From Candidatus Moraniibacteriota bacterium (GTDB taxonomy: Bacteria; Patescibacteriota; Minisyncoccia; Moranbacterales; GWC2-37-73), in assembly GCA_003507445.1 (NCBI GenBank), contig DNVR01000019.1, positions 206,132 to 270,131 of the forward strand: a stretch of DNA of 64,000 nt, in the 5' to 3' direction. Position numbers and translations under genes: made by a program. Below are positions 31,375 to 60,432 of this stretch, in pieces. Numbering within the stretch: the stretch's first letter is position 1; each line of letters starts with the position of its first letter. A model generated the notes under the pieces. It was not told where the DNA came from. It saw only the letters and a program-made list of their open reading frames with translations, and searched no databases.

Positions 31375-32112
31375 TTGATTATTGAAATTATTATGTCTTA
31401 TCATTTTAAACTCGAACAATTTGAAGGGCCGCTGGATTTGCTTTTGCAACTGACTCAGCAGGAAAAGCTTGATATTACTCGAGTAAGTTTGGCGAAAATT
31501 GCAGATCAATATTTGGCATATATCGCTGAGGCCAAAGACATCACGCTTGCTCATCTGGCTGATTTTTTGTCAGTGGCATCTCGTCTTATTTTGATCAAAT
31601 CCAAAGCCTTGCTTCCGATGTTGGAATTTACTGAAGAGGAAGAGGAGGAAATTAAAGATTTGGAATATCAATTGGCAGAGTATAAAAAATTTAAAGATGC
31701 TTCGGCAAAGATTGCGCCCATTTTTGATTCGCCAAAAGCAAGTTTTGCGCGCGAAGGATTTTTGGGCTTGGCAACACTTTTTTATCCGCCAGAAAATATT
31801 GTTGCTTTTGATTTGCAAAAAGCTTTTGCCAAAGTGTTGGGCGAAATTCCGGTTCAAGAAAAATTGGAAGAAGAAATGGTAAAAGAAGTTCTAACTTTGG
31901 AAGACAGAATTGTCCATTTGCAAAACACCTTGAGAGACCGAGTGCAAACATCATTTTCCGAACTTGTTGCAAATGCAAAAGACAAAGTTGAAATTGTGGT
32001 TTCTTTTCTTGCAATGCTCGAATTGGTAAAACAACGAATCATCCACGTGGAGCAAGGAGAACTATTTTCCGAAATACATCTTAAACACAAAGATCATAAA
32101 AGTGCTACGTAA
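31375..32112 (+). CDS. scpA: segregation and condensation protein A
   Basis: 245 aa; FEGPLDLLLQL N-terminal motif, C-terminal winged helix; likely true start MSYHF (31393). Confidence 0.8.
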   Translation: MIIEIIMSYHFKLEQFEGPLDLLLQLTQQEKLDITRVSLAKIADQYLAYIAEAKDITLAHLADFLSVASRLILIKSKALLPMLEFTEEEEEEIKDLEYQLAEYKKFKDASAKIAPIFDSPKASFAREGFLGLATLFYPPENIVAFDLQKAFAKVLGEIPVQEKLEEEMVKEVLTLEDRIVHLQNTLRDRVQTSFSELVANAKDKVEIVVSFLAMLELVKQRIIHVEQGELFSEIHLKHKDHKSAT

Positions 32113-32130
32113 TTATAGTTCAAAAAAAGC

Positions 32131-32243
32131 TTTTGTTTTGCCTGCTTCCTTTCTCGGCACGCTTCGCAATCGAAGAACTATGATTGCTCGCTAAGAGTTC
32201 GCTGTCGCTCTCTGTTGCCTCGAAAGAAAACAGGCAAAACAAA
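32131..32243 (+). repeat. ~115-nt structured intergenic element E1 (MITE-like or sRNA; second copy at 46104-46222)
   Basis: imperfect 25-bp terminal inverted repeats TTTTGTTTTGCCTGCTTCCTTTCTCGG / CTCGAAAGAAAACAGGCAAAACAAA; internal hairpin gcaatc-GAAGAACUAU-gauugc covaries with the E2 copy. Confidence 0.5.
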
Positions 32244-32436
32244 TTGAACTTTTGAGACTTAGAGTCATAACTTGCATATGATTTGTCAAAAGTGAGTTGG
32301 GTAAAACCAGCTCGTTTTTTATATCCAAAAATCCTGTTTTCCCAGCAGGAAGAGGTTTCTGATTATTGTGTATTAATATTTATAAGATGAAAGAATGTCG
32401 CAAAAAAGTGGGAAAATATCATAATAATTAATATTC

Positions 32437-32477
32437 ACTCAAGTTAAATGGCGGGAGGTTTTGCAATTTAACTGGGT
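32437..32477 (+). promoter_or_regulatory. SD-region leader hairpin (variant of CCCAGUUAAAU/AUUUAACUGGG family) upstream of VOC gene
   Basis: CTCAAGTTAAAT...ATTTAACTGGGTAAAA then ATG 32486. Confidence 0.4.
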
Positions 32478-32485
32478 AAAATCAT

Positions 32486-32902
32486 ATGAAAAATCCAAGA
32501 CCCATACATTTTGAAATCAACGCAATTGATCCTGCGCGCACCGCCAAATTCTATGCGGATGTGTTCGGGTGGGAGTTTGAAAAGTGGGAGACGCCAGAAG
32601 CCAACATGGACTATTGGATGGTTATGACAGGCGACAAGGAAACCATGGGAATCAACGGTGGTATGAGCAAGCAAGACCAGCCTCCTGCCAAAGGAGGAGC
32701 CAATTCATTCATCCCAACAATGGGAGTTTCCAATTTTGACGAATATCACCAAAAGATTCTTTCAGCCGGTGGAACAGTGCAAATGGAAAAGCACGAGATT
32801 CCAACTGTCGGTTTGCATGGATATTACCATGACACCGAAGGCAACATCTTCGGCATCCTCGAACCATCAGAGGAGATGAAAAAAATGGAAGAAACGATGT
32901 AA
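32486..32902 (+). CDS. VOC/glyoxalase/bleomycin-resistance family protein
   Basis: 138 aa; paired beta-alpha-beta-beta-beta modules, HFEINAIDPART N-terminus. Confidence 0.7.
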   Translation: MKNPRPIHFEINAIDPARTAKFYADVFGWEFEKWETPEANMDYWMVMTGDKETMGINGGMSKQDQPPAKGGANSFIPTMGVSNFDEYHQKILSAGGTVQMEKHEIPTVGLHGYYHDTEGNIFGILEPSEEMKKMEETM

Positions 32903-33054
32903 TGATTTCAAAAAGAAATTTCCTGTCACCAGCGCAGGGAATTTTTTTAACTGAAAATTAGAAAAAAGCGTGAATTTGGGAAATTGAAGAATGATTTCGG
33001 GCTTAAAGTAGGTATTCTGCTCCATGCTCCATGTTTCATGTTTTATGATTTCGA

Positions 33055-33130
33055 GCTTGAATTATGGGTAAAATGAGAGTAGAATGGAAATATAAGTCAA
33101 CTGACGTTGTTACGTAGCATGTTACGTAAC
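33055..33130. repeat. 76-bp direct repeat, left flank of GNAT cassette
   Basis: about 95% identical to 33628-33703; ends in the TACGTA tandem palindrome. Confidence 0.75.
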
Positions 33131-33142
33131 AAAATTATATGT

Positions 33143-33601
33143 ATGGAAATCGTGATTAGAAAAACAAATGAATTCGAAAAAGCTTTGGGAATTGCGAAAA
33201 CATTGCCGGAGTTTTTCACGCAGCAAGGGCTGGATGAAATCAAGGTGCAGCTTCCTGATCAAGCAGTATATGGAGCATATGACGGCGAGGAATTGATCGC
33301 CTGCATTAGCTATAAGAAAGTCAATGACTCAACAATTGATATTGCTTTCCTTTTTATGCTGGAGACTTATCATGGAAAGGGCATTGGCACGCGACTTGTT
33401 GAAGAGAGTCTTGCTGTTGAAGGCGGGGAATTCAAGGTTTGCCAGGTTAATACTTTGGCAGAGACTGTTGAAGATGCAGGATATGCAAGAACAAGAAAAT
33501 TTTATGAAAAATTGGGTTTTATTCCAATTGAAATCATCCACCCCTATCCCGGTTGGGGCATGGAAAATCCGTGTCAGATTTATGTGAGATTTTTGAAATA
33601 A
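33143..33601 (+). CDS. GNAT-family N-acetyltransferase
   Basis: 152 aa from MEIVIRK; acetyl-CoA motif HGKGIGTRLVE; the ORF-track start 33107 lies inside the palindrome. Confidence 0.7.
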   Translation: MEIVIRKTNEFEKALGIAKTLPEFFTQQGLDEIKVQLPDQAVYGAYDGEELIACISYKKVNDSTIDIAFLFMLETYHGKGIGTRLVEESLAVEGGEFKVCQVNTLAETVEDAGYARTRKFYEKLGFIPIEIIHPYPGWGMENPCQIYVRFLK

Positions 33602-33627
33602 AGCAGGCCTTGAGTCTGTTTTATTGT

Positions 33628-33703
33628 GCTTGAATTATGGGTGGAATGAGAGTAGAATGGAAATATAAGTCAACTGATGTTGTTACGTAGCATGTTACGT
33701 AAC
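33628..33703. repeat. 76-bp direct repeat, right flank of GNAT cassette
   Basis: gcttgaattatgggtggaatgagagtagaatggaaatataagtcaactgatgttgttacgtagcatgttacgtaac. Confidence 0.75.
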
Positions 33704-33793
33704 AAGGTTTTATTTTTGAAAAATAAGTTATGCACAGTTGTGTTTGAATTTATTGAATGATATAATATCACTGTAAGAGTTTAAAATAAAAAT

Positions 33794-34765
33794 ATGACAC
33801 AAAAAATAATACAAGATATGGCCGTCAGTTTGAATATTCATCCAATTCATCTGCGGGTTTTTATGTCGAACTTTAAAAATGTATCAGCTGAAAATATCGT
33901 ATCGGCATACAAAGAATTCAAAGATGAAAATCCAAAACCGTTTGTAAAGTGGGTTGGAGGAAAAAGGCAATTGCTCAAACAATTTAGAGAGAGAGATTTG
34001 TATCCGCCCTATGATTTTGATCCGAAAACTGCAACTTACTTTGAGCCTTTTGTCGGTGGTGGAGCAATGTTTTTTGATTTGTTACCAAAAAAAGCTGTTT
34101 TGTCTGATATGAATGCCGAATTGGTAACAACTTATAATGTTATTAAAAATGACGTTGAAGGATTAATAAAAAAATTAAAAGAATATCAAAAGAAAAATAA
34201 TAAAGAATATTTTCTCAAAGTTCGTGCGCAAGATTTTAAAAAACTTTCCGATGTTGATGTTGCTGCTCGTTTTATATATCTAAATAGAACTTGTTTCAAT
34301 GGAATGTTTCGCGTTAATGGTAGTGGTCAATTTAATGTTCCATTTGGGGATAACAAGAATCCGCTTATTTGTGATGAAGAAAATTTGCGGAAAGCTCATG
34401 ATGCAATGAAGTATACTAAAATCTTGCATCAGGACTATGGAAAAGTTTTAGAAAAAGCAAAAAAAGGAGATTTTGTTTATTTTGATCCACCTTATTGTCC
34501 GGTTAACGCAACGTCTAGTTTTACGAGTTATACCAAGGAGGGATTTCTTGAAAAACAACAAATAGAATTGAAGGATGCCTTTATGGAGCTCCACAAGAGA
34601 GGTTGCTATGTTATGCTTTCAAATTCTGATACGCCATTTATCAATGAATTATATTCTGGACTAGGCAAAAAAATAAAAATTCACACTGTTGATGCTGGGC
34701 GTTCTATTAATTCAAAGGGAACAGGAAGAGGAAAAATTAAGGAGGTTGTCGTGATAAATTATTAA
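33794..34765 (+). CDS. dam: DNA adenine methyltransferase (Dam/D12 class N6-adenine MTase)
   Basis: 323 aa; KWVGGKRQLL, EPFVGGGA, YLNRTCFNGMFRVN, catalytic DPPY (VYFDPPYCP). Confidence 0.85.
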   Translation: MTQKIIQDMAVSLNIHPIHLRVFMSNFKNVSAENIVSAYKEFKDENPKPFVKWVGGKRQLLKQFRERDLYPPYDFDPKTATYFEPFVGGGAMFFDLLPKKAVLSDMNAELVTTYNVIKNDVEGLIKKLKEYQKKNNKEYFLKVRAQDFKKLSDVDVAARFIYLNRTCFNGMFRVNGSGQFNVPFGDNKNPLICDEENLRKAHDAMKYTKILHQDYGKVLEKAKKGDFVYFDPPYCPVNATSSFTSYTKEGFLEKQQIELKDAFMELHKRGCYVMLSNSDTPFINELYSGLGKKIKIHTVDAGRSINSKGTGRGKIKEVVVINY

Positions 34766-34774
34766 AAAATAATT

Positions 34775-36481
34775 ATGGCAAATTTTACAAAAACAGAGCC
34801 TTATACATTTGCAGCCCTTTGTGATTCTTTTAAAATGTTTAAGATACCAAATTTTCAGAGACCATATAAATGGACAAATAAAAATATCCAAGAATTTTGG
34901 AGCTCAATTATTTCAAATCAGAGTCCATATTTCATTGGGAATATAGTTGCAGTAAGTGACGAAAGTCTTCTTGTTATTGATGGGCAACAGAGATTAACAA
35001 CAATTAATTTGTTGTTAATAGCCCTAAGGGATACATATTCAAATATAAAAGTAAAAAAAAGCGATAAAACTAAAGTCAGTAGAACTATTGCAAGAATAGA
35101 TAAATATCTGAAGGATGATGATCTTTCGAAATCGGTAGAGTCTGAATATAAACGATTAGAACTTGGCAAAGATATGTATCAGAAAATTTTCAACATGTTG
35201 GTTGATAACGAAATCGATAACATTGATATAAAAAAGTTAACTGATAACCAAAAACGATTAATAAACAACTATGAAATATTAAAAAAATTTATACTATCAG
35301 AAATTAAGGGATCAGAGCTGAATAGTTTGGATGGTATTTTAAACAAAGTTTTAAATTTGCAGTTTATTGTTATTGTTTGTGCAACTGAAAATGATATATA
35401 TGGTATTTTCGAAGGATTTAATTCTACAGGATTGGGCTTGTCGGTAGCAGATCTTGTAAAAAATTCTATTTTAAAAGGAAGTGCGAGAGATACAAAAATG
35501 CAATCATTAATTGAGGAATTATGGAATGAAATGGAGTTAATGTTTGATGAAACAATTGCTTCAAAATTTCCTAAATTTCTTAGGCACCAATGGATTTCAG
35601 TTTATGGCCATGTTTCTATGTCCAACCTTTATAGGGAAATAAAGTCTGAGAAGATTGATAATAAGACACCGCAGATAATTAAGGAATATGTGGAATCAGT
35701 TTTATTTGATGCTAAGATATATCTTGGGATGCTATATTGGAAACACGAAAAAAACCTGGACTTGCCAAAAGATATATTGGAAGAAATATTTAAATTCAGA
35801 TTTTTGCAAAATGACCAGGTTTATGAGGTGTTGTTGACTTATCATCGGGCATTTAAAGAAAAAAGGATAACCCAATCTTTTTTTAAAAAATTTCTTAAAC
35901 GACTCTGGATTTTTACTGTTAGAGCTAGGTTCGTATCTGTAAATCCTTCTAAATATGAAAAAATCTTTTCAACACAATGTAAAGAAATTTACGAATGCAA
36001 AAATATTGAAGAAGTTTCTGCTGAAACTGAACGTTTTTTTTCAAAATTAAAAAAACTTGTTTCATCTGATGAGCAGTTTGTTGAGAATTTTATTGCAGAT
36101 GTTAAGTATGGGAAGGATAATAAATTAATATCTCTAGCAATTTCAGACTTAATGAGTTATGATAATCCAGAAATAAGCATAAAAGAGCCAGAAATAGAAC
36201 ACATTTTACCTCAAGAACCTAAAAAATGGGGATTTGCCAAGAGTGAAGTAAAAGATTATGTTGATAAAATTGGAAATTTAACTTTATTATTTAGTGATTT
36301 TAATAAAAAAAATAGCAATGAAACCATGTCATTTAAAAAAGCTATATTTAAAAAATCAAAACTTAAGTTCAACGTTGATATAGCAGATAAATGGGGCGAT
36401 ATTTTCGTTAAAGACTTCAAGAATGCTATTGAGCGGAGAAGTATTGATATGACAAAAAGAATTGAAAAAATTTGGAAATAA
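34775..36481 (+). CDS. GmrSD-like type IV restriction enzyme (DUF262 N-terminal / DUF1524 HNH-like C-terminal)
   Basis: 568 aa; DUF262 DGQQRLTT motif, C-terminal His-Me finger EIEHILPQ...IGNLTLL. Confidence 0.8.
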   Translation: MANFTKTEPYTFAALCDSFKMFKIPNFQRPYKWTNKNIQEFWSSIISNQSPYFIGNIVAVSDESLLVIDGQQRLTTINLLLIALRDTYSNIKVKKSDKTKVSRTIARIDKYLKDDDLSKSVESEYKRLELGKDMYQKIFNMLVDNEIDNIDIKKLTDNQKRLINNYEILKKFILSEIKGSELNSLDGILNKVLNLQFIVIVCATENDIYGIFEGFNSTGLGLSVADLVKNSILKGSARDTKMQSLIEELWNEMELMFDETIASKFPKFLRHQWISVYGHVSMSNLYREIKSEKIDNKTPQIIKEYVESVLFDAKIYLGMLYWKHEKNLDLPKDILEEIFKFRFLQNDQVYEVLLTYHRAFKEKRITQSFFKKFLKRLWIFTVRARFVSVNPSKYEKIFSTQCKEIYECKNIEEVSAETERFFSKLKKLVSSDEQFVENFIADVKYGKDNKLISLAISDLMSYDNPEISIKEPEIEHILPQEPKKWGFAKSEVKDYVDKIGNLTLLFSDFNKKNSNETMSFKKAIFKKSKLKFNVDIADKWGDIFVKDFKNAIERRSIDMTKRIEKIWK

Positions 36482-37107
36482 ATTTTAAAAATATGAATAA
36501 TTACAATTTAAGATTACTTGATAACTCGGAGGTTATTAAATGGTGCTATGAGGGTGTTACGGATATTTCTTTGAAGAATACTGAAAGTGAAAAAAAATTA
36601 AAAGAATCAAAGGAGATAGAAAAAGAATGGGGCAATAGCGTTATGAATACCACAGATGGAAAGCAGTGGACAACTTTGCTTTGTCAAAATTTAGTCATGG
36701 AGGCACTTGTTAGGCTTGGTAGAAAAAATGTCAGACAAACTACTGCAAAAAAAAGTACTCTTAGGGATAAAAAATACGATCCAGATTTAGAATGTGACGA
36801 ATTTGTTTATGAGGTGAAGGGCAGAAGTTGGTCTACCCCTGGAACTGCTGGTGAAAAAATACTTGGAGTGCCCTTGAAATATGGTGAATTGCCACGTTTA
36901 TACAAAAAACCACTTCAAATAGTTTTGGTAGGATATCAGGAATATGAAGCTCGAGAAAAATTCGCTTTCGGTGATTTATTAGACAAAAATAATCAAACAA
37001 CTGAATTACGAGACAGCCTAGCTTTTTACAAGGAGCACAATATTGAATATGTTGCCTTTACAGATATTTTGAAAAAAATAGGTTTTGATTATGGCTGTTG
37101 GAATTAA
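36472..37107 (+). CDS. putative type II restriction endonuclease (PD-(D/E)xK)
   Basis: 211 aa; YDPDLECDEFVYEVKGR fits PD...ExK; immediately upstream of MTase; alternative start 36493. Confidence 0.45.
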   Translation: MEINFKNMNNYNLRLLDNSEVIKWCYEGVTDISLKNTESEKKLKESKEIEKEWGNSVMNTTDGKQWTTLLCQNLVMEALVRLGRKNVRQTTAKKSTLRDKKYDPDLECDEFVYEVKGRSWSTPGTAGEKILGVPLKYGELPRLYKKPLQIVLVGYQEYEAREKFAFGDLLDKNNQTTELRDSLAFYKEHNIEYVAFTDILKKIGFDYGCWN

Positions 37108-37122
37108 AGATGATTTAAAAAA

Positions 37123-37869
37123 ATGAAAACAAAAATAAAATTGCATCCAGATGAATTTGAAATGGAATGTACCACTGTGTGGTCATTCCCTAGGCGTGGA
37201 AACTGGGCAACACATAAATCAGATTGGCGAGGAAATTGGGCACCAGAAGTGGTGCGTAATTTAATCCTGCGTTACTCAAAGGAAAGCGATCACATTCTTG
37301 ATTGTATGATTGGCGGTGGAACAACCGCAATAGAGGCAAAAATATTAAATCGTCACATCACTTGTATTGATGTTAATGAAGAGGCACTAGAACGTACGAA
37401 AAAATCATTAGAATTTGAGGTTGAAAACAATTCCAAACAAAGAATAATGAAGTGCGACGCTCGCAATATGGCATTCATTAAAAATGAGGAAATAGATTTT
37501 GTTCTTACTCATCCACCGTATGTTGATATTATAAAGTATAGCGAAGGAAAAATTAAAGAAGATTTATCTGGCATTCATAGTCTGGATGAATTTTGTGATG
37601 AAATTGAAAAAGTTGCCAGTGAATTATTTCGCGTTTTGAAAAAAGGAAAATATTGTGCAATTTTGATGGGGGATACTAGAAGAGAAAAAATGTATCAACC
37701 GTTGGCCTTTAAGGTTATGGAACGATTTTTAAAACAAGGTTTTGTATTAAAAGAGGATATTATTAAAAAACAACATAACTGCAAAGCCACCGGCTTTTGG
37801 GTAAAACGTTCCCAAGAAAGTAATTTTCTCTTGATTATGCATGAGCATCTTTTTGTATTTCAGAAATGA
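37123..37869 (+). CDS. DNA methyltransferase (N4-C/N6-A, gamma-like motif order)
   Basis: 248 aa; motif I DCMIGGGTTAIEA precedes motif IV LTHPPY. Confidence 0.75.
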   Translation: MKTKIKLHPDEFEMECTTVWSFPRRGNWATHKSDWRGNWAPEVVRNLILRYSKESDHILDCMIGGGTTAIEAKILNRHITCIDVNEEALERTKKSLEFEVENNSKQRIMKCDARNMAFIKNEEIDFVLTHPPYVDIIKYSEGKIKEDLSGIHSLDEFCDEIEKVASELFRVLKKGKYCAILMGDTRREKMYQPLAFKVMERFLKQGFVLKEDIIKKQHNCKATGFWVKRSQESNFLLIMHEHLFVFQK

Positions 37870-37879
37870 TTTTTTTATT

Positions 37880-38305
37880 ATGAAAACAAAGAAAGAAAAA
37901 AAGTTATCAGAAGAGTTTGTGAAAAACTCTGTTATTAAATATCTCTCCTCTAACGGCTGGGGTCATTTTAAATTTGGTGGATTAAGAGAGCATGGTGTTG
38001 ATATAAAAGCAAAAAAACAAAATTATGATCGGTATTTTCTTATTGAGGCAAAAGGCGAAGGAAGTCGTAGGGAAATGAATGAAAATTATTTTGTTTATTC
38101 ATTAGGGCAAATAATAACTCGTATGACTTCTGGCGGAACAACAAGAAATTATTATGGACTTGCACTTCCGGATTCAATAGCAAAAATTGCGCTTAGGCGC
38201 ATTCCATGGCAAGTAGCAAAAAAGTTGCTGCTGTATGTTTTTTCTGTTGATTCAAAAGGACAAGTGAAACAAAATTCTTGGCAGGATATAAAAAACAAAA
38301 AATAA
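37880..38305 (+). CDS. PD-(D/E)xK nuclease-like hypothetical protein
   Basis: 141 aa from MKTKKEKK; HGVDIKAK...YFLIEAKGEG fits D...ExK core. Confidence 0.4.
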   Translation: MKTKKEKKLSEEFVKNSVIKYLSSNGWGHFKFGGLREHGVDIKAKKQNYDRYFLIEAKGEGSRREMNENYFVYSLGQIITRMTSGGTTRNYYGLALPDSIAKIALRRIPWQVAKKLLLYVFSVDSKGQVKQNSWQDIKNKK

Positions 38306-38308
38306 TTT

Positions 38309-38330
38309 GCTACGTAACATGCTACGTAAC
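38309..38330. repeat. tandem TACGTA palindrome element (gctacgtaac-at-gctacgtaac)
   Basis: same family; 60 nt upstream of AbrB-like gene. Confidence 0.7.
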
Positions 38331-38357
38331 AAAATAAAAAATAAAAATTAATCTAGA

Positions 38358-38378
38358 TTCCGGATTTGCTGTCCGGAA
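38358..38378. promoter_or_regulatory. candidate operator: perfect inverted repeat TTCCGGA-N7-TCCGGAA
   Basis: 13 nt upstream of the AbrB/MazE-like ORF start; typical autoregulatory operator geometry. Confidence 0.4.
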
Positions 38379-38390
38379 TGATAAAGAAGT

Positions 38391-38555
38391 ATGAAAAAGA
38401 AAGAAGAACTTGTTCGCAAAGTGACTGGAGTTGGGAAGCGAAGCCTCTCAATCGTCATCCCATCCGAAATCGTCGCCGAACTCGGGATTAAAGAACGCCA
38501 AAAAATGACCTTCAAAATCGACCGCAAGAAAATAATTATAAGTGATTGGAAATAA
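38391..38555 (+). CDS. AbrB/MazE/SpoVT-family small DNA-binding protein (antitoxin-like)
   Basis: 54 aa, not in ORF track; KRSLSIVIPSEIVAELGIKERQKMTF matches swapped-hairpin AbrB/MazE domain. Confidence 0.55.
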   Translation: MKKKEELVRKVTGVGKRSLSIVIPSEIVAELGIKERQKMTFKIDRKKIIISDWK

Positions 38556-38567
38556 TTCTATTTATAT

Positions 38568-39995
38568 ATGCGTGAAAAACACATAACACAGGAATCATCA
38601 AAATTGCAAAATTCTAATTTATCTGGGATAAAATTTGAAAACGATCAAACTTATTCCAAGAGCATTTCGCAAGAGTTGGCTGAAATGAGGATACAACAAG
38701 AAAAAAAAGATATTGACGAAATAGATAAAATTATGGGATTTTTTCGTGTACCTGAAAGAAATAATGAAGTACATGTTTTTGATGCTGGCGAAAAATTTGA
38801 TCCATATTCTGAAATTGATAAAATTAGGGTTGGAAGTAAAAAAGAAAAAAGACATAATCTGGAAATATATAAGAAGAAATTAATATTTCAGCGTAAGGGG
38901 ATTACTGAAATGCAAACTCATTTGTACGAGTTAATGCAAAAGAAAGAGACAATGACGGTTGAAATGCTTAAGCAATCCATTGCCGACCTTGAAGATAAAT
39001 ATGCATTATGCGATGAGCAAAGACGTATTTTTGATTCTGCAATAAAAATATATGCCGAAAGACATAATGGTATAGTTGAAAATACTCGAGATTGCATTGA
39101 TGAAGAAGGGAACATTGATGGAAAAAAATTATATGAGAAAATTTTTGGTAGACAACCTTATGGGGATGTTAATGTTGAAATATTGCCAATTACTATATAT
39201 CTAAGAACTTTTGATTTTGAAGATTATGCGTATGTTCATTCAAATGCATATAAAAACAAAAGAGAAATTGATGATGATGAATTTAAAAATGCTAGTATGT
39301 CAGGAGGAGTAAAATTGTGGAACTCTGGATTTTCTGGTCTGGAAAGCGTTGTAACACTTCAAAACGCTAATAATGTCGTTAAAAGAATGTTTAAGAGTAT
39401 TTCTGATGAAACACGTGATCATGAAGATCAGCATAATTTTAATGATCTTATCGATGAAGCGTTTATAAATAACGGTAGCGCATCATCTCCTATTGGCGAA
39501 AACGAGGAAATATTACGGGATGTGGATGAAAAAGAAAAAAAGAAACAAGACGCTGAAAGTCGTGACATAGGCATTGAAATGATGATAGGGGATGAGATGT
39601 GCGCATTTTTTAAAACCGGTAATTCAGCTCAATATATTCATGACGCAATATTAAAAAAAGATACTATATATGAATATGGGAAGAATTATAGAAAAGAAAA
39701 AAGGAAACATGGAGAGCAATTTTCTCAAAATTACAAAGACCTTGTTGATGGAGGAATTGTTGCTATGTTTGATTTACTCGATCATGGTTATTCGCGAAAA
39801 GAGGTTATAGCCTTGCTATTTTTTGATCTTCCTTCACAGTGGGGAAAAGTTGTTTCTAGAGTTTTGGAAAGAAGAAAAACAACAACAGAAGAAAAACAAG
39901 ATAGAAAAAAAATTGTGAATATTATTGATAGAATCAGTAGACATATTACTGGGAAGTTTAGTGATATCTATGATTTTTTTAGGGTAAGATTATAA
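38568..39995 (+). CDS. hypothetical 475-aa protein, candidate effector paired with AbrB/MazE-like gene
   Basis: starts 13 nt after the AbrB-like stop; charged, Lys/Glu-rich; no recognisable catalytic motif. Confidence 0.5.
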   Translation: MREKHITQESSKLQNSNLSGIKFENDQTYSKSISQELAEMRIQQEKKDIDEIDKIMGFFRVPERNNEVHVFDAGEKFDPYSEIDKIRVGSKKEKRHNLEIYKKKLIFQRKGITEMQTHLYELMQKKETMTVEMLKQSIADLEDKYALCDEQRRIFDSAIKIYAERHNGIVENTRDCIDEEGNIDGKKLYEKIFGRQPYGDVNVEILPITIYLRTFDFEDYAYVHSNAYKNKREIDDDEFKNASMSGGVKLWNSGFSGLESVVTLQNANNVVKRMFKSISDETRDHEDQHNFNDLIDEAFINNGSASSPIGENEEILRDVDEKEKKKQDAESRDIGIEMMIGDEMCAFFKTGNSAQYIHDAILKKDTIYEYGKNYRKEKRKHGEQFSQNYKDLVDGGIVAMFDLLDHGYSRKEVIALLFFDLPSQWGKVVSRVLERRKTTTEEKQDRKKIVNIIDRISRHITGKFSDIYDFFRVRL

Positions 39996-40030
39996 AATAA
40001 TATGGGTATTGAAAAAATAATGATTTCAGA

Positions 40031-40453
40031 TTGGAAATAAAAAATATGAGAATTGTGGTTAGGGCTATAATTAAAAATGACGATTCACTGTTGGTAATTA
40101 AGAGAATTAAAAATGGGAAAACATATTTTGTTTTTCCTGGCGGCGGGGTTGATGATGGAGAAAGTCATCCCATTGCACTAAAAAGAGAATGCAAAGAAGA
40201 ATTGGGCCTAGATGTTTCAGTATTGGAATTTATGTATGATTTTGATTTTATCAAAAAGGATAATGAGCCACAGAAAGAATATTTTTATCAATGCGATATA
40301 TTAGGAGGAAAACTCGGAAGTGGTGAAGGAGAAGAATATAGCCCAGACCGCAATAGTGGAATTTATGAGCCAATGTGGATAAAGTTAGAGGAACTTTCAG
40401 ATTTGGATTTGAGACCAATCGAAATAAAAAATAAATTAATAGCTGAATTATAA
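40031..40453 (+). CDS. NUDIX hydrolase
   Basis: Nudix box GGGVDDGESHPIALKRECKEELGL; likely true start ATG 40046 (MRIVV). Confidence 0.75.
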   Translation: MEIKNMRIVVRAIIKNDDSLLVIKRIKNGKTYFVFPGGGVDDGESHPIALKRECKEELGLDVSVLEFMYDFDFIKKDNEPQKEYFYQCDILGGKLGSGEGEEYSPDRNSGIYEPMWIKLEELSDLDLRPIEIKNKLIAEL

Positions 40454-40456
40454 TTA

Positions 40457-40478
40457 GCTACGTAACATGTTACGTAGC
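40457..40478. repeat. tandem TACGTA palindrome element (gctacgtaac-at-gttacgtagc)
   Basis: same family. Confidence 0.7.
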
Positions 40479-40533
40479 ACTCCAGAGAAATAGAAGAGAT
40501 TTTACGGGGTAAAAAATAACCAATCAAACATAG

Positions 40534-40564
40534 CATTCACTCAACGTCGGCCGTGGAAGAGTGA
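40534..40564. repeat. GC-rich 31-bp repeat CATTCACTCAACGTCGGCCGTGGAAGAGTGA (copy 2)
   Basis: upstream flank of PaaX-like gene. Confidence 0.6.
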
Positions 40565-40622
40565 TGTAAGGTGGGATATTATTAAGATGGAGATCTTTAT
40601 TTTTTTATAGTATAATCGTGGT

Positions 40623-41210
40623 ATGTATAGGCCAGGAGTTGTTCAAAAGAAAATATTGTTGGCGCTTTTAGGTGGGGTTGCTTTGGGTGTGTCTTCATCG
40701 CCTCGACAATATTTTAGTACTTTGCGAAAATTGAAAAAAGAATGGGTAAAAATAAATCCACAGAATTTTAATCGCTCCATCAAGAGTCTTTCGAAGGAAA
40801 AACTTATAAGCGAGATCGAGCTTCCTGATGGTTCTTTTAAATTGACCTTAACTGAAAAAGGCAAGAAGCAGGCTCGCGTGCTGAATATCTTCGGAAAGTC
40901 GATAGATTTCAAGAAGCCGAAGAAATGGGATGGCAAGTGGCGAGTTGTTATGTTTGATATCCCTGAAAAAGATAGACTTTTTCGCGACGTGCTCAGAAAT
41001 CACTTGAAGGATTTGAAATTTAGGAAATTGCAGCACAGCGTTTTTGTTTCACCTTATCCTTTCGAGAAACCTATCTTGGAATTGGTCGCTCTGTATTCGG
41101 CGGAAAAATTTGTCAGAGTCATAACTGCACAGAAATTGGATAATGGTAAATATCTCGAAAAAATGTTTTTCAAAAAAAACAAACACTCACTCAACGTCGG
41201 CCGTGGATGA
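40623..41210 (+). CDS. PaaX-like winged-helix regulator domain protein
   Basis: 195 aa; N-terminal wHTH-like region; C-terminal WDGKWRVVMFDIPEKDRLFRDVLRNHLKDLKFRKLQHSVFV resembles the PaaX C-terminal (also Cas2-like) fold motif; last 9 codons run into repeat copy 3. Confidence 0.4.
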   Translation: MYRPGVVQKKILLALLGGVALGVSSSPRQYFSTLRKLKKEWVKINPQNFNRSIKSLSKEKLISEIELPDGSFKLTLTEKGKKQARVLNIFGKSIDFKKPKKWDGKWRVVMFDIPEKDRLFRDVLRNHLKDLKFRKLQHSVFVSPYPFEKPILELVALYSAEKFVRVITAQKLDNGKYLEKMFFKKNKHSLNVGRG

Positions 41211-41215
41211 GTGAG
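41184..41215. repeat. GC-rich 31-bp repeat CACTCACTCAACGTCGGCCGTGGATGAGTGAG (copy 3)
   Basis: downstream flank of PaaX-like gene. Confidence 0.6.
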
Positions 41216-41240
41216 TTAATAACAAATAAATAATTTCAGA

Positions 41241-41918
41241 TTGGAAATAAAAAATATGGAAAAAAGTAAGATAAAAGCAATAATATTTGATATGGATGGT
41301 GTGTTGGTTAATTCTGAACCAATACATGAAAGAGCGGAAATGGAGATTTGTCTTGAGTTTGGTATGAAGGTTTCAAAACGTGAATGGGATGGTTTTCGGG
41401 GCAAGAAGCTTGAAGACATCTTTTCATACGCCAGCAAAAAATATGGAACTGGAAATGAGCCTATTGAGGAGATGATTGAGCGTAAGATTGCTCGGTATTT
41501 GTCATTGGCACTTGCTGAAATGGATCTCGTCCCCGGTGCATATGATTTTCTGCAGAAGCTAAAAAAGAATGGAAAATATAGCTACGCGCTGACGACCTCA
41601 GGCAGGAAGGTACAGCAGGAAAAAATTCTTTCAAAATTCAAACTTGCTGATTATTTTGAAATCATGATTACTTCGGATGATGTGAAGAATGGCAAGCCTC
41701 ATCCAGAGCCATATGCAATCACAGTGCAAAAACTGAATGAGCTGCCCGAGGCATGCTTGGTTATCGAAGATTCTGATAATGGAATTTTGTCTGCCAAGGC
41801 TGCAGGATGTTTTGCTTGCGGGATCACGACGACATTTGGTCGCGAGAAATTGGAAGGTGCAGGCGCAGACATGGTAGTTTCTGATTTTTTTGAATTATCA
41901 AAAATATTATTCGATTAG
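41241..41918 (+). CDS. HAD-superfamily hydrolase (beta-phosphoglucomutase-like, subfamily IA)
   Basis: motif I IIFDMDGVL, motif III K, motif IV EDSDNG; likely true start ATG 41256. Confidence 0.8.
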   Translation: MEIKNMEKSKIKAIIFDMDGVLVNSEPIHERAEMEICLEFGMKVSKREWDGFRGKKLEDIFSYASKKYGTGNEPIEEMIERKIARYLSLALAEMDLVPGAYDFLQKLKKNGKYSYALTTSGRKVQQEKILSKFKLADYFEIMITSDDVKNGKPHPEPYAITVQKLNELPEACLVIEDSDNGILSAKAAGCFACGITTTFGREKLEGAGADMVVSDFFELSKILFD

Positions 41919-41926
41919 TATTACAT

Positions 41927-41948
41927 GCTACGTAACATGCTACGTAGC
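41927..41948. repeat. tandem TACGTA palindrome element (gctacgtaac-at-gctacgtagc)
   Basis: same family; last copy before scpB. Confidence 0.7.
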
Positions 41949-42094
41949 AACCCAATGAAATAATATTAAATTTCATGGGTTAAAAAATAAAAAGCATTTA
42001 AACAATCTCACATCCCATAGGGAATTACGTAGCTAATTACATAATTCCGAAAAAGCTGGTATACTTTCAGTAAGTAATAAAAAAATTAAAAGCT

Positions 42095-42643
42095 ATGGAA
42101 TTGGAAAAATTACAAGGGGTTATTGAAAGCATTTTGTTTGTTAGTGGGGAGCCGATTAAGAGGGCGAAGTTGGCAAAGATCGTGGGGCTTGGGGCTGAAG
42201 AAGTTGATGCTGCTTTGGCTGTGTTGAGCGAGAAATATGCTTTGGCGGGCAGCGGGCTTAGTTTGCTTGTTAAGGGCGAGGAAGTGCAATTGGTTTCTAA
42301 TCCTGAAAATGCTGAGTTTATTGAAAAATTGGTTAAAAGTGAACTTCAAGATTCGCTTTCTAATGCTGCTTTGGAAGTCGTTTCAATCATTGCATATCGC
42401 GGTCCAATTTCGAAAACTGAAATTGAGGCAATTCGAGGTGTTAATTGCGCTTATACACTCAGAAATCTGCTTTTGAGAGGGCTTATTGAGCGAAGTGACA
42501 ATCCAAATGATTCTCGAGGCTATGTTTATGCGATTACATTTGATTTTCTTAAAAAGTTGGGGATTGAATCCGTGAAAAATCTTCCAGAGTATGGTATACT
42601 TTCAGCAGATGAGAGAATTAATTCAATAATCTCAAAAGAATAA
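42095..42643 (+). CDS. scpB: segregation and condensation protein B
   Basis: 182 aa; two winged-helix repeats, ILESILFVSGEPI N-terminal motif. Confidence 0.8.
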   Translation: MELEKLQGVIESILFVSGEPIKRAKLAKIVGLGAEEVDAALAVLSEKYALAGSGLSLLVKGEEVQLVSNPENAEFIEKLVKSELQDSLSNAALEVVSIIAYRGPISKTEIEAIRGVNCAYTLRNLLLRGLIERSDNPNDSRGYVYAITFDFLKKLGIESVKNLPEYGILSADERINSIISKE

Positions 42644-43686
42644 TGGGTATAGGGGCAACCATTTTAATGATCGCATTTTTCCCGCTTAATTCCTTTTTGC
42701 TTTTTCACGAAAGTTGGGCAGGAGGAAGGCAAGTGCAGGCTGATTTTTCGACTGAAAATAAAAGTATTCAAGGATTGGCTCAGGGTGTGGAAACTGAAAA
42801 GAAACCGGAAGCGATTAAATTGTTGAAAGCGCAAGCTGTTGATGATCCACAATATCAACCTGTGCGCAAAGAAGGGGTTAGTGATCTTGTTTTGCCGAAT
42901 GCTCATGCATCGGTTGTTATTGACGGAGACACGGGAACGATTTTGCATTACAATGAAGGACGCACTCAAAGGCAAATTGCATCACTCACAAAAATAATGA
43001 CAGCTGTTTTGGTGATGGAAAATGTTAAGGATTTGAATGAAGCGGTTACTATTGATGAGGAAGCTGTTTATATTGAAGGCACAAAAATAGGTTGTCCTCG
43101 CAGCGGATATTGCATAAGCCCGCGTCTTAAGGTTGGCGAAAAAATCAGTGTTAAAAGTTTGCTTCAGGCAATGTTGATGAACAGTGCAAATGATGCGGCA
43201 CTCGCACTCGGAAAACATATTTCAGGAACAGAAGAAGAATTTGCTGATTTGATGAACAAAAAAGCCAAAGAATTGGGATTGGTGGACACAAAATTTTGCA
43301 CAGCCTCAGGACTTGATCTTGATGATGAAGAAGCTGCTGCCAAATGTTATTCTTCTGCATATGACATTGCTCGCATCGGTGCATATTCACTTCGTTATGA
43401 CACTATTTGGAAAATGTTTCGTATGCCAAACAATTCAATCGTGACTTCATTGGATGGAAAAATTGAGCACACGATTTTGAACACAGATCTTGCGCTTGAT
43501 CAGATTTCAAATGTATACGGTGGAAAAACCGGATTTACTCCAATGGCTGGGTATTCTCTCTTGATGGCTGTTTCTGATCCTAGTACAAAACATCGCATCA
43601 TTGTGGTTGTTTTGGATGACCCTCAACGTTGGCAGGATATTCGCACCGCAATTGATTGGACACTTAATTCCTACAGTTGGCGATAG
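42643..43686 (+). CDS. D-alanyl-D-alanine carboxypeptidase (peptidase S11)
   Basis: 347 aa; signal/TM; SxxK (ASLTK), SxN (SAN), KTG (GGKTGFT). Confidence 0.75.
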   Translation: MGIGATILMIAFFPLNSFLLFHESWAGGRQVQADFSTENKSIQGLAQGVETEKKPEAIKLLKAQAVDDPQYQPVRKEGVSDLVLPNAHASVVIDGDTGTILHYNEGRTQRQIASLTKIMTAVLVMENVKDLNEAVTIDEEAVYIEGTKIGCPRSGYCISPRLKVGEKISVKSLLQAMLMNSANDAALALGKHISGTEEEFADLMNKKAKELGLVDTKFCTASGLDLDDEEAAAKCYSSAYDIARIGAYSLRYDTIWKMFRMPNNSIVTSLDGKIEHTILNTDLALDQISNVYGGKTGFTPMAGYSLLMAVSDPSTKHRIIVVVLDDPQRWQDIRTAIDWTLNSYSWR

Positions 43687-43782
43687 CGCAACTAATAATA
43701 AATAACTAATAACAAACAACAAACAACTAGGATTACGAACGAAAAGTTGTGAGTTGTGAGTTGTAGGTTATAAGTTAATATT

Positions 43783-44883
43783 ATGCAATTTGCTCAAATT
43801 CAAACAATTCCGGAAGTCGTTAATGTTCTCAAGATTCTCATCACGGGACTCCTTGCTTTTTTGTTGGCTTTTGGGATCACACCTCTTTGGACGCACTTGC
43901 TTTATAAATATAAATTTGGAATTAAAATTAAAAGCAATGATGTTAGTGGTGGAAAACTGACATTTGTCAGTAAGTTGCACGCTCATAAATCAGGAACTCC
44001 CACGATGGGCGGAGTTATTATGTGGGTAACGATTATTATTTTGGTTTTTTCTTCACATTTTATTTTTCCTTGGATTGGAAAACTTTTGGATATTGATTTT
44101 ATTGCTAGACTTGATTTTTTGAGTCGTAAACAAGTTTGGCTGCCACTTTTTGCATTAGCTTCCGCTGGAATTCTTGGTCTTTTTGATGACGTGATGAGTG
44201 TTCGTGGCTGGGGAAGCAACAAGGGTGGAGGAATGCGTTTTGCAATGAGATTTGGCTGGCTGATTGTTATTGCTTTGGCTGGTGGCTGGTGGTTTTTTTA
44301 TAAACTTGGTTGGGATGTTTTGCATATTCCTGCTTTTGGGGATTTCTCAATTGGTTTTTGGTACATTCCACTTTTTGTTTTTGTGATTTTATTTTCCGCA
44401 GTGTCTTCAAATGAAACAGATGGTTTAGATGGGTTGAATGGTGGGGTACTGCTACTTGCTTTCTTTTCTTTTACAATCATTGCTTTTTTTCAAAACAAAG
44501 TTGATCTGGCTTCATTTTGCAGCGCTATGTCTGGCGTGCTGCTGGCTTTCTTGTGGTTCAATATTGCACCTGCGCGCTTTATGATGGGCGATACGGGTGC
44601 GATGGCACTTGGAACAACGCTTGGTGTTGTTGCTATGCTTACAAATTCAGCGTTGGCCCTTTTCTTTATTGTGTTTATATATGTGCTTGAATCTGGAAGT
44701 GTGGTGATTCAGCTTACTAGTAAAAAGTTTTTTCATCGTAAAGTTTTTTTGGCGGCGCCACTTCACCATCATTTTGAGGCAAAAGGTTGGCCTGAATGCA
44801 AAATTGTTATGCGTGCTTGGATTTTCACAATGATCACCGCTCTGGTGGGCGTCGTGATTGCCATTTTCGGCATGGGAAGATAA
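43783..44883 (+). CDS. mraY: phospho-N-acetylmuramoyl-pentapeptide transferase
   Basis: 366 aa; 10 TM; GLFDDVMS, NETDGLDGL, HHHFE motifs. Confidence 0.8.
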   Translation: MQFAQIQTIPEVVNVLKILITGLLAFLLAFGITPLWTHLLYKYKFGIKIKSNDVSGGKLTFVSKLHAHKSGTPTMGGVIMWVTIIILVFSSHFIFPWIGKLLDIDFIARLDFLSRKQVWLPLFALASAGILGLFDDVMSVRGWGSNKGGGMRFAMRFGWLIVIALAGGWWFFYKLGWDVLHIPAFGDFSIGFWYIPLFVFVILFSAVSSNETDGLDGLNGGVLLLAFFSFTIIAFFQNKVDLASFCSAMSGVLLAFLWFNIAPARFMMGDTGAMALGTTLGVVAMLTNSALALFFIVFIYVLESGSVVIQLTSKKFFHRKVFLAAPLHHHFEAKGWPECKIVMRAWIFTMITALVGVVIAIFGMGR

Positions 44884-44964
44884 ATTCATATAACATAAAA
44901 CATATAACATGTAACAAATAAAAACAGATAGTGAGTAGCGCATAGTATTAATTTTTTTTGCTAT

Positions 44965-46047
44965 ATGCTATATGCTATATGTTTCATGAACAACGTGAGT
45001 ATTAAAAAAATACAGGAAGGGGTTTTTTTGGATAAGAAAATTTTGGTTAGAGCAGATTTCAATGTTGCGCTTGAGGATGGAAAGATAAAGGAAAAATTCA
45101 AATTGGAAGCATGCAAAAAAACGATTGACCACCTGTCAGCTCAGAGTGGTTCTAAAGTTGCACTAATATCTCATCTTGGACGCCCAGAAGGGAAAAAGAA
45201 TCCAGAATTTTCACTTGAGCAGATTAAAGACGAACTTGAAATAATTTTGGAAAGAAAAATTGTTTTTGTGAATGATTGTGTTGGCAGTGAAGTTTCAAAA
45301 GCACTGGACGCACTTAATGTTGGCGAGATTATTCTTTTGGAAAACGTTCGTTTTTATGAGGGAGAAGAAAAAAATGATGTTGAATTTTCCAAAAAACTTG
45401 CTGAAAATTTTGATGTTTATATTAATGACGCATTTAGTGTTTGTCATCGCAATCAGGCATCGGTAACTGGAATTACTGCTCACATTGAAAGCTATGCTGG
45501 TCTTCGTCTTCAAGAAGAAATCAAAAATCTCAATCGTGTTATTCATGAACCAGAAAGTCCCGCAACTGCTATTATTGGTGGCGCCAAAATTGAAACAAAA
45601 TTGCCGCTTATAAATAATTTTGAAAAAGCATATTCGCACATTTTGGTTGGCGGAAAAATAGCCAATGAAGCAATTGATCAGAAATTGGCATTTTCGCCAA
45701 AAGTTATTTTGCCTTTTGATTTTGCCAAAGATCGTTTTGATATTGGCCCCAAGACAATCAGAAGATTTAAAGAAATTATTGCGCAATCCAAAGTTATTGT
45801 TTGGAATGGTCCGATGGGCAAATTCGAAGAGCAGCCATATGACATAGGAACGCGTGAAATTTTAGACGCAATTGTGGAGAGCGATGCTTTCACATTAATC
45901 GGCGGTGGAGAATCAGTTCAGGTTTTGGAAGAGAATAATCTTATGAACAAGATTTCTTTTGTCTCAACGGGTGGTGGTGCAATGCTAGAATATCTCAGTG
46001 GAAATCAAATGCCTGGAATTGAGGCTTTGCGCATGAAAAAGGAATAA
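44965..46047 (+). CDS. pgk: phosphoglycerate kinase
   Basis: RADFNV, SHLGRPEG, GGGA/GGGES hinge motifs; true start probably MNNVSIKK (44989). Confidence 0.85.
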   Translation: MLYAICFMNNVSIKKIQEGVFLDKKILVRADFNVALEDGKIKEKFKLEACKKTIDHLSAQSGSKVALISHLGRPEGKKNPEFSLEQIKDELEIILERKIVFVNDCVGSEVSKALDALNVGEIILLENVRFYEGEEKNDVEFSKKLAENFDVYINDAFSVCHRNQASVTGITAHIESYAGLRLQEEIKNLNRVIHEPESPATAIIGGAKIETKLPLINNFEKAYSHILVGGKIANEAIDQKLAFSPKVILPFDFAKDRFDIGPKTIRRFKEIIAQSKVIVWNGPMGKFEEQPYDIGTREILDAIVESDAFTLIGGGESVQVLEENNLMNKISFVSTGGGAMLEYLSGNQMPGIEALRMKKE

Positions 46048-46103
46048 TAATATTTTGGGAAATGATGCGACAATGTGGTATACTGAAGTAGTCGTAAGGA
46101 GTT

Positions 46104-46222
46104 GTTTTTTTGTTTCGCCTGTTTCCTCTTTCGGCACGCTCTTGGCCGAAAGCTATGGCCAATCGCTCTTGCCTGCTATTTCGCAGCCAACGGCCTCAAG
46201 AGAAAACAGGCTCACAAAAAAC
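46104..46222 (+). repeat. structured intergenic element E2 (paralog of E1 at 32131-32243)
   Basis: same terminal arms; internal hairpin uuggcc-GAAAGCUAU-ggccaa differs from E1 by compensatory changes; ORF 46055..46279 overlapping it is judged spurious. Confidence 0.5.
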
Positions 46223-46282
46223 CACATGTTATATATGATCCTTAGTTTCATTGATATTTTTTTAAAAAAACAAAAATAAATT

Positions 46283-46894
46283 ATGAAAAGTCCTCAATTT
46301 AAGGCGGGCGATATAGGTGTATTTAACAAAAAAGTATCATTAATTGAACTTAGGAAAGTTGATCCAATTTCAATAGTTGGGCTGTATGTTTCAGAGGCTT
46401 TGTTGTTTTTGGGGATCTTGCTTATTTTGCTTAACAATTTAAATGTTGTTGCTCCAGGGAGTTATTTTGGTGCATATAACTGGGTAACTGTTACGGTTTT
46501 TTCCATTGGGCTTGTTATTAATTTTATTTCCATTCCATTTTTATATTTTTCCAGTTTGAGAAATTTTGTAAAAGAAAGTGAATTTTGGGACAAGGAAACA
46601 TTTTGGATTTTGCCATTGTTTTTTTTCGGAACATTTTTTCTATACAATAGTCTTATAGCTCCGGCGCTGGTTTTGCTTATTTTGTCGATTATGACCATCG
46701 CATCTATCCATATCAAATTTATATTCAAGGCTCGAAAAATAAATATGGAAAATGAAAAAGGTTTATATGCTAGCAGGGAGCAATATGTAATAACCTTAAA
46801 ATATCTTTCGGCTTATTACGTCTTATTGTTGGCATTGCTTGTTTCTTTTGATCCATTGTATCAAGTGTTCTTTTGGATTCGTTTACATACTTAA
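46283..46894 (+). CDS. hypothetical integral membrane protein
   Basis: 203 aa; 5-6 TM helices. Confidence 0.45.
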   Translation: MKSPQFKAGDIGVFNKKVSLIELRKVDPISIVGLYVSEALLFLGILLILLNNLNVVAPGSYFGAYNWVTVTVFSIGLVINFISIPFLYFSSLRNFVKESEFWDKETFWILPLFFFGTFFLYNSLIAPALVLLILSIMTIASIHIKFIFKARKINMENEKGLYASREQYVITLKYLSAYYVLLLALLVSFDPLYQVFFWIRLHT

Positions 46895-54307: not shown

Positions 54308-54314
54308 ACAAGAT

Positions 54315-56482: not shown

Positions 56483-56487
56483 ATAAA

Positions 56488-56587: not shown

Positions 56588-56595
56588 AAATAGTT

Positions 56596-57071: not shown

Positions 57072-57079
57072 ACCAAGAT

Positions 57080-60110: not shown

Positions 60111-60249
60111 ACTGGTAAGTATTATATCTTTTATTTATAATTTTGTCCACTGTGAAAAATCCTTGCGAATACTGATAAATACGAGTAAAATATACACATA
60201 AGCTGACAAATTTAATATTGTAGGACTTACGCATTTTCTCAACAATTTT

Positions 60250-60310
60250 CTAGCGAAGCCGAGTGAAATGAAAGTACTCTTTCAATTTCCGAGCGAGCGA
60301 CGAAAAGCTC
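60250..60310. repeat. inverted copy of the 57-bp palindromic repeat seen at 7286-7342
   Basis: ctagcgaagccgagtgaaatgaaagtactctttcaatttccgagcgagcgacgaaaagctc. Confidence 0.55.
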
Positions 60311-60432
60311 ATTTCTTTTTTGGCACGCTTTTGGATAAATACTCAATATCCAAAAGCTCAAAGAGTCGCTGTCGCCAACTATTGGCCAAAAAAGAAATGT
60401 TTCGAAACGCGTAACCCCTTTATTTATACTTT

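Follow-up and report, generated by a model that had tools for sequence, protein, structure and literature searches.

A probable family of miniature inverted-repeat transposable elements with a branched, covarying central domain in Moranbacteria and Parcubacteria

Two structured elements of about 115 nt, E1 and E2, lie in a 64,000-nt stretch of Candidatus Moraniibacteriota contig DNVR01000019.1 (assembly GCA_003507445.1, positions 206,132 to 270,131 of the forward strand), referred to here as the window. [quoted passage not shown] The first-pass annotation of this DNA, made from its letters, had described the pair as MITE-like elements or a small RNA, and the MITE-like reading has gained ground: more copies, target duplications and empty sites were all found. 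The elements are small and non-coding, carry terminal inverted repeats and direct duplications, and occur as dispersed copies with presence/absence polymorphism; the duplication is missing from the truncated E2 and tentative for E1. The family is a previously undescribed one of a well-known element kind. No description of MITEs in CPR bacteria was found in the literature, and to our knowledge these bacteria, with their very small genomes, are not known for active transposons.

Results

Anatomy of the E1 and E2 cores

Both elements were found where the first-pass annotation had placed them, and sequence and a family covariance model set the cores at 32131-32244 and 46108-46220. The cores share a layout of an end stem of about 23 bp, a 2x2 internal loop, a GGC/GCC helix, the GGCACGCT box and two hairpins, which together make a three-way junction. 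The stem and the conserved box, both described earlier, are present in E1 and in E2. Identity between the two cores is only 63%, and hairpin A is paired in each despite unrelated stems, as the first reading had it. The features are as follows.

32131..32244, + strand: E1 core (family covariance model 124.2 bits, E = 2e-28; sequence; folds)
32131-32153 with 32222-32244: E1 long stem P1
32156-32158 with 32217-32219: E1 helix P2, GGC/GCC
32156-32163: E1 GGCACGCT box
32166-32187: E1 hairpin A, GCAATC/GATTGC
32194-32213: E1 hairpin B
46108..46220, + strand: E2 core (family covariance model 98.9 bits; sequence; folds)
46133-46140: E2 GGCACGCT box
46142-46162: E2 hairpin A, TTGGCC/GGCCAA
46169-46190: E2 hairpin B
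32154-32163 in E1 and 46131-46140 in E2: longer box TCGGCACGCT

Genes on both sides of E1 and of E2 are co-directional on the + strand. E1 sits after scpA, and E2 lies between pgk and a gene for a 203-aa protein that is followed by eno. The open reading frame noted over E2 (46055..46279) exists, and no + strand counterpart of 40 aa or more covers E1. The sole Rfam match in the window at gathering threshold is a tRNA. At E values up to 10, E1 is overlapped only by chance matches to microRNA hairpins and the E2 core by nothing; known ribozymes, 6S RNA, Y RNA and other Rfam small RNAs were rejected as identities for lack of a covariance-model match up to E 10.

Copies in other genomes and metagenomes

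A pattern derived from E1 and E2 was used to scan one genome per species. Of its matches, 18 were true copies, spread over four CPR assemblies (Candidatus Moranbacteria GW2011_GWE2_36_40, Moraniibacteriota STA_10, Parcubacteria GW2011_GWD2_38_11 and a bin labelled Bdellovibrionales), and about 19 were high-GC chance matches that have no stem. A stricter pattern recovered 18 metagenome loci, and de-duplication of genome copies and metagenome loci left 27 distinct cores. The search for further copies proposed at the outset was thus productive, and the description of E1 and E2 as a two-copy element does not hold, since a third, divergent copy also lies at 60221-60415 in the window. Copies per genome number at least nine in STA_10 (in the fragments searched), four in GWE2_36_40, four in GWD2_38_11 and three in this window. 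An all-against-all comparison defined a common unit of 115 nt, sharply bounded at -23 and +91 from the box, and the cores of the subfamilies are 63-83% identical. A covariance model was built from the 27 cores and used to find the type II copies and the window copies. The search patterns imposed the boxes TCGGCACGCT and TCRARAGAAAACAGGC, so the invariance of both is uninformative; they also fixed the right arm of the long stem, and hairpin A lies in their unconstrained gap.

Every copy is intergenic. Viral contigs, phage records and plasmid records yielded zero copies. The closest named relatives of the window genes are Moranbacteria and Parcubacteria, and the window is 99.9-100% identical to contigs from Rifle groundwater. 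One short soil-metagenome contig (L062) carries two cores in the same orientation, at 726-837 and 977-1088, 251 nt apart.

Outer repeats and target-site duplications

A second inverted repeat, approximately GGGTCATACGCAATATATGGTTTC, lies outside the core in most copies, 0-33 nt away on each side. These outer repeats are of the GGGTCATACGCAATATATGG type. They are found on both sides in 10 of the 27 distinct copies (at most 7 mismatches of 19), and decayed forms are visible in others, E1 included. The direct 8-mers right outside the outer repeats match at 7-8 of 8 positions in eight of the ten two-repeat copies and are perfect in six; AGAAAAAG, ATAATTTG, TAAAAAGA and TTTTATCT are instances. With shuffled flanks, 6% of trials attain 7/8, and the corresponding binomial P is 6.6e-9. 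Two-repeat copies measure 174-191 bp, and the model copy, L038 4361-4550, has 190 bp and the duplication TAAAAAGA. A complete element consists, in order, of an outer repeat, a short asymmetric linker, the 23-bp stem, the three-way junction with its two hairpins, a linker and the second outer repeat, with 8 bp of AT-rich intergenic target sequence duplicated at its flanks.

Because the 8-bp duplications lie outside the outer repeats, the mobile unit is the element of about 185-190 bp and not the 115-nt core. The arms of about 25 bp that the first-pass annotation took for terminal inverted repeats are an internal stem, and the transposition termini are the separate outer repeats. The target-site duplications that it suggested looking for are present, at 7-8 of 8 positions in the eight copies just described. 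Where terminal inverted repeats and an 8-bp target duplication occur together, they are the hallmark of a DDE transposase, inserting either by cut-and-paste or replicatively. The ends read TTTTGYTTYGCC...GGCAAARCAAAA, without GTTRRRY/RYYYAAC.

E2 is a recent, truncated insertion

Alignment of the E2 region with a sister strain and with outgroup species provides an empty site. The features of this region are as follows.

46114..46241, + strand: segment missing from the sister strain, comprising the E2 core and right outer repeat (alignments with L002/L070 and outgroups L066 and L068)
46220-46241: E2 right outer inverted repeat, reverse complement GGATCATATATAACATGTGGTT
46055..46084, + strand: promoter-like site TTGGGA-18-TATACT with upstream TG (consensus scan; outside the element, immediately upstream)

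The sister strain (L002, L070-L073) has GG in place of window positions 46114-46241 and is identical to the window at 97.9% of positions upstream and 93.1% downstream of the E2 site. The left junction of E2 is ambiguous inside a T-run at 46105-46113. Filled and empty alleles co-occur in one sample, JGI 3300025009. The segment is also absent from two outgroup species, GWC1_36_108 (neighbouring protein 89% identical) and GWD2_38_11 (82%), and for this reason E2 is an insertion in the lineage of the window and not a deletion elsewhere. The empty site that the earlier annotation had asked about therefore exists in the sister strain and in two outgroup species, and E2 is a recent, left-truncated copy that is polymorphic in the Rifle groundwater population. 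To call L002 a clean empty site of a complete element is only partly right, since E2 is truncated and has no duplication.

The promoter-like site is kept in the element-free relatives L070 and L066, which makes it the probable native promoter of the following gene. The sequence ATGCGACAATGTGGTATAC upstream of E2 was rejected as a left outer repeat, being the same promoter-like sequence that is conserved in element-free relatives. E2 lies between this site and the downstream gene (46283-46894), a position that is probably the 5' leader of the 203-aa gene.

Just past the pgk stop, the sister strain has a 42-nt extra segment that is missing in the window (L002 3424-3456, also in L070-L073). The 33-nt core of this segment, TAGGACTTACGCATTTTCTTAAC+ACGCGTAAC, consists of both type II outer repeats, fused without an intervening core. 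It represents either a minimal version of the type II element described below or one that has undergone internal deletion.

E1 is an old copy at the edge of a variable block

E1 and its flanks are shared with Moranbacteria GW2011_GWE2_36_40 (L004), and the whole element was delimited by comparison of the flanks.

32097..32294, + strand: whole E1 element with decayed outer repeats (flank comparison with the family consensus and syntenic L004; boundaries tentative)
About 32105-32124 (left) and about 32262-32286 (right): E1 outer repeats
32097-32104, TAAAAGTG, and 32287-32294, CAAAAGTG: possible 8-bp duplication, tentative

The direct repeat TAAAAGTG/CAAAAGTG matches at 7 of 8 positions and brackets 182 bp; in a copy of this age, boundaries and duplication are tentative. 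The left outer repeat includes the scpA stop codon (32110-32112). The E1 and L004 cores are 97.4% identical, while the whole region averages 89% column identity, with substitutions in the flanks and indels in both linkers. E1, at the 3' end of scpA, is a fixed copy of old age, and that age is read only from the sharing with L004; the closest glyoxalase homologue lacks synteny.

The scpA gene (31375-32112) and scpB (42095-42643) are separated by a block of about 10 kb (32113-42094) of unrelated accessory and defence genes, which encode a glyoxalase, a GNAT protein, a Dam-like methylase, a GmrSD endonuclease, a second methylase, a NUDIX protein, a PaaX/Cas2-like protein and a HAD hydrolase. The block differs in L004 (AHSA1-like, glyoxalase, RadC and Fic genes), and in strain L001 the HAD gene is replaced by another. 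E1 stands at the conserved scpA edge of this variable block.

The block also contains repeats of another kind. A perfect or near-perfect 22-nt palindrome, GTTACGTAGCATGYTACGTAAC, occurs seven times in the window (at 2352, 22391, 33109, 33682, 38309, 40457 and 41927) where none is expected by chance. Five of the seven lie in the scpA-scpB block, and three begin 3-9 nt past stop codons (38305, 40453 and 41918). The palindrome looks like a cassette-end or repetitive extragenic palindromic (REP)-like repeat, and its motif TTACG recalls the outer repeats found in the MITE families. Two 95-nt direct repeats (33055-33149 and 33628-33722), 91% identical and each containing one 22-nt palindrome, bracket the GNAT acetyltransferase gene. 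A Pfam scan of the genes between the palindromes gave no transposase.

A second type with different termini

The third window copy is divergent and represents a second type of the element, with outer repeats of its own.

60221..60415, + strand: third window copy, divergent type II (core 60310-60399; covariance model 38.8 bits, E = 8e-7)
60221-60243, TAGGACTTACGCATTTTCTCAAC, and 60399-60415, GTTTCGAAACGCGTAAC: type II outer repeats
60310-60399: type II core features, namely TTGGCACGCT, hairpin A TTTGGATA/TATCCAAA and loop GCTGTCGC
60249..60313, + strand: nested palindromic insert of about 65 nt, absent from the syntenic L060 copy

Type II also occurs as the syntenic copy in L060 and as an independent copy in L049. 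The L049 copy folds into the same three-way junction with a fourth hairpin-A sequence, TTTGGATA/TATCCAAA, and type II has a continuous helix at the position of the type I internal loop. The nested insert is probably another small mobile repeat; a related inverted sequence is found at 7280-7314.

Covariation and strand

RNA folds of E1 and E2, set against dinucleotide shuffles, have + strand z-scores of -3.9 and -4.4 and minus-strand z-scores of -6.3 and -6.6. DNA parameters give the same junction, the predicted energy of the core-only fold is -40 to -59 kcal/mol, and each subfamily that was folded yields the same predicted junction. In the 27-core alignment, standard pairs occupy 89.8% of cells, compared with 42-52% when the partners are slid by 1-3 columns, and 13 pairs have changed on both sides, a number reached in 0 of 500 shuffles; the copies are related by descent, so the cell counts overstate the independent events. 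Hairpin A is an unbiased sample because it lies in the unconstrained gap of the search patterns, and there six of seven pairs covary and 98.4% of cells are paired. The compensatory changes noticed between E1 and E2 are thus a general pattern of the additional copies, and compensatory substitutions keep the core fold intact.

In every copy the minus strand gives the better fold, chiefly on account of a C.A mismatch (G.U on the other strand) that 25 of the 27 copies carry and that is therefore mostly inherited. The long stem has 48 A.C and 9 G.T cells, a count confounded by the fixed right arm, which leaves only left-arm changes visible. A.C:G.T events in the unfixed regions are 3:0 in hairpin A (the C.A cells are in L012, L014 and L016) and 1:3 in the outer stem, and are not significant. 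The excess of A.C over G.T cells (48 versus 9) was therefore rejected as a sign of the functional strand. The initial remark that the arm mismatches are C/A on the + strand and would be G-U on the minus strand is true of E1 and E2, but no family-wide signal accompanies it. The minus strand could not be upheld as a functional RNA strand, because the A.C excess is confounded, gene orientation is mixed and the core flips; neither mixed orientation nor core flipping agrees with a strand-specific RNA function. A scan of the three window copies turned up no terminator-like site, and a role as intrinsic terminator was rejected on that ground.

Other repeats in the window

Three further kinds of repeat were seen in the window. 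Tandem 7-nt units CATAGAA/CATAAAA (complements TTCCATG/TTTTATG) fill intergenic stretches at 20430-20467, 25929-26046, 44883-44999, 54227-54318 and 56472-57082. A motif of about 30 nt, CACTCACTCAACGTCGGCCGTGGAAGAGTGA, occurs at 2379-2432, 40511-40564 and 41161-41214 as a GC-rich hairpin upstream of genes in this AT-rich genome. The 3' half of the tRNA-Lys gene (61001-61074) recurs as an inverted copy 4 nt further on, with arms 61053-61089/61094-61130 that are 86% complementary; this copy may be a terminator or an integration scar.

Discussion

The MITE reading of E1 and E2 includes a proposed mode of action. A DDE-type transposase, supplied in trans, would bind the outer repeats and make 8-bp staggered cuts, a mode of mobilisation suggested by the 8-bp duplications. 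The inserted elements would be read through as parts of neighbouring mRNAs, and the RNA would fold into a very stable branched hairpin whose presence may be tolerated or favoured as a structure for mRNA ends or for processing, and which could protect or mark those ends, in the way reported for the Correia and ERIC (enterobacterial repetitive intergenic consensus) elements discussed below. This read-through hairpin is the least speculative reading of the central domain, by analogy with those elements, and a role of the fold in transposition itself would be equally hypothetical.

Several observations weigh against the MITE reading. E2 lacks both the left outer repeat and a target duplication, the duplication of E1 reaches only 7/8 and its left repeat looks shortened, and two independent type II insertions have no clear duplication. 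A fuzzy match with both outer-repeat types found no autonomous insertion sequence bearing these repeats in the window or in about 0.4 Mb of CPR sequence, and no repeat pair flanking a gene was found in the same sequences. Relative to co-directional neighbour genes, 13 copies are oriented as in the window and 5 are opposite; the core is inverted with respect to the asymmetric linkers in L030, L053 and L059 (versus L004 and L058) and in L029 (versus L025). No promoter or terminator consensus common to the copies was found. Finally, compensatory changes in a DNA palindrome can arise through hairpin-templated repair without selection.

This last point leads to the possibility, which we hold to be doubtful but worth serious attention, that the compensatory pattern is a mutational by-product, with one arm of a hairpin overwritten by a copy of the other through template switching or mismatch correction inside it. 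Quasi-palindrome mutagenesis is an established mechanism, the whole element is one long imperfect palindrome whose hairpins also form with DNA parameters, and single-sided intermediates exist in L012, L014 and L016, as C.A cells of hairpin A. This mechanism leaves unexplained both the resemblance of unpaired junction and loop sequences among subfamilies and the higher conservation of the core over its flanks at E1/L004. Another reading makes the core a functional structured RNA, either an RNA gene or a cis-regulatory RNA, that the element carries or that was domesticated from it, with the covariation reflecting RNA function and not selfish spread. In its favour, hairpin A covaries strongly, the junction is kept across subfamilies of 63-83% identity and type II, the syntenic E1 and L004 cores (97.4%) exceed the surrounding DNA in identity, and GGCACGCT and GCTGTCGC are common to type I and type II. 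We regard such an RNA as unlikely, given the lack of any Rfam match up to E 10 and of a common promoter or terminator consensus, the unrelated gene neighbourhoods in both orientations, the flipping of the core within its frame, and the truncation or absence of the core in close strains without obvious consequence; moreover, the conservation of the boxes was partly imposed by the search patterns and by the model used for type II and is not independent.

It is also distinctly improbable that the mobile or modular unit is the 115-nt core on its own, occupying the centre of separate REP-like palindromes. The linkers from core to outer repeat vary from 0 to about 33 nt, the core is flipped in its frame in the copies listed above, related cores sit within two outer-repeat types, E2 has no left outer repeat, the 33-nt unit of the sister strain (L002/L070) consists of type II ends alone, and the seven 22-nt palindromes of the window have a similar TTACG motif. 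Against this, the 8-bp duplications lie outside the outer repeats and not beside the inner stem, where no direct repeats were seen among the copies inspected, and total length is constant at 174-191 bp in the two-repeat copies. Flipping is more simply explained by recombination between the 23-bp stem arms, which would invert the core in place.

Long imperfect palindromes at intergenic sites, often just after a gene, with a minus strand that folds better than the plus strand, would also suit a REPIN-type doublet or an attC-like single-strand recombination site. REPINs are mobilised by REP-associated tyrosine transposases (RAYTs) and make no target duplications, and neither the REPIN nor the attC mechanism generates 8-bp target duplications; their presence here contradicts both and leaves this explanation scarcely credible. 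The elements resemble REP and REPIN sequences as intergenic palindromic repeats able to form long hairpins, and differ from them in having 8-bp duplications and separate outer inverted repeats. REP and REPIN sequences characteristically have a conserved GTAG-type head and a linked RAYT gene, and attC sites have terminal R''/L''/L'/R' boxes containing a GTTRRRY core, together with a linked integron integrase. A REP or REPIN identity was rejected on the duplications and because no GTAG-type head is visible at the ends, and an integron attC identity because the ends have no GTTRRRY/RYYYAAC boxes; the window genes that were scanned include no such transposase and no integrase.

Comparison with other mobile elements places the family among bacterial MITEs. 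IS110 bridge RNAs and IS200/IS605 omega RNAs adjoin a transposase or nuclease gene in autonomous elements that have no terminal inverted repeats and no 8-bp duplications. The likeness is a conserved, covarying RNA-like fold within a mobile element, the difference is that the Moranbacteria element has no adjacent gene, and the comparison serves as a lead only. Correia elements duplicate a TA dinucleotide and have Neisseria-type 26-bp repeats; the duplication here is 8 bp and not TA, and on this description of Correia the present family was set apart from it. QMITE2 of Coxiella burnetii has terminal inverted repeats of about 23 nt and direct repeats of 7-9 bp (PMC10969869). QMITE2 and other bacterial MITEs are likewise small, AT-rich, non-coding and multi-copy, occupy AT-rich intergenic sites and have a central core of about 115-145 nt, and transcripts of bacterial MITEs are also predicted to form a very stable stem-loop (PMC10969869). 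The present family differs from them in its CPR host and its branched, covarying three-way junction, and is set beside the described MITEs by features and not by sequence. The closest analogues for a possible mode of action are Correia of Neisseria and ERIC of enterobacteria, although hosts and sequences differ. Both are palindromic repeats of about 100-160 bp that are co-transcribed with neighbouring genes; Correia RNA hairpins are cut by RNase III, and ERIC hairpins alter RNase E access and mRNA level (PMC10969869).

Two points are unusual in the family favoured here, the flipping of the core and a branched, covarying core common to two families with different termini. A core that acts as a functional structured RNA or single-stranded DNA fold, needed by the element or recruited by the host as a transposase scaffold or guide or as a mobile mRNA-end or processing module, is in our estimate quite unlikely. 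If true, it would account for the covariation of the stems alongside persistent junction and loop sequences across type I subfamilies and type II, for a syntenic E1 core that is more conserved than its surroundings, and for the place of E1 at the conserved edge of the variable scpA-scpB block. An mRNA module, if real, would rewire core-gene expression in streamlined CPR genomes.

As a MITE family, the elements show recent transposition in CPR bacteria, for which the still-perfect duplications and one insertion polymorphic within a single groundwater population are the evidence. The E2 insertion adjoins the pgk-eno glycolytic cluster, and scpA takes its stop codon from E1. In practical terms the value is modest, and the general understanding of MITEs is unchanged. 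The elements are ready markers of strains in Moranbacteria populations, and they provide a clear-cut setting in which to ask whether selection preserves a fold within selfish DNA.

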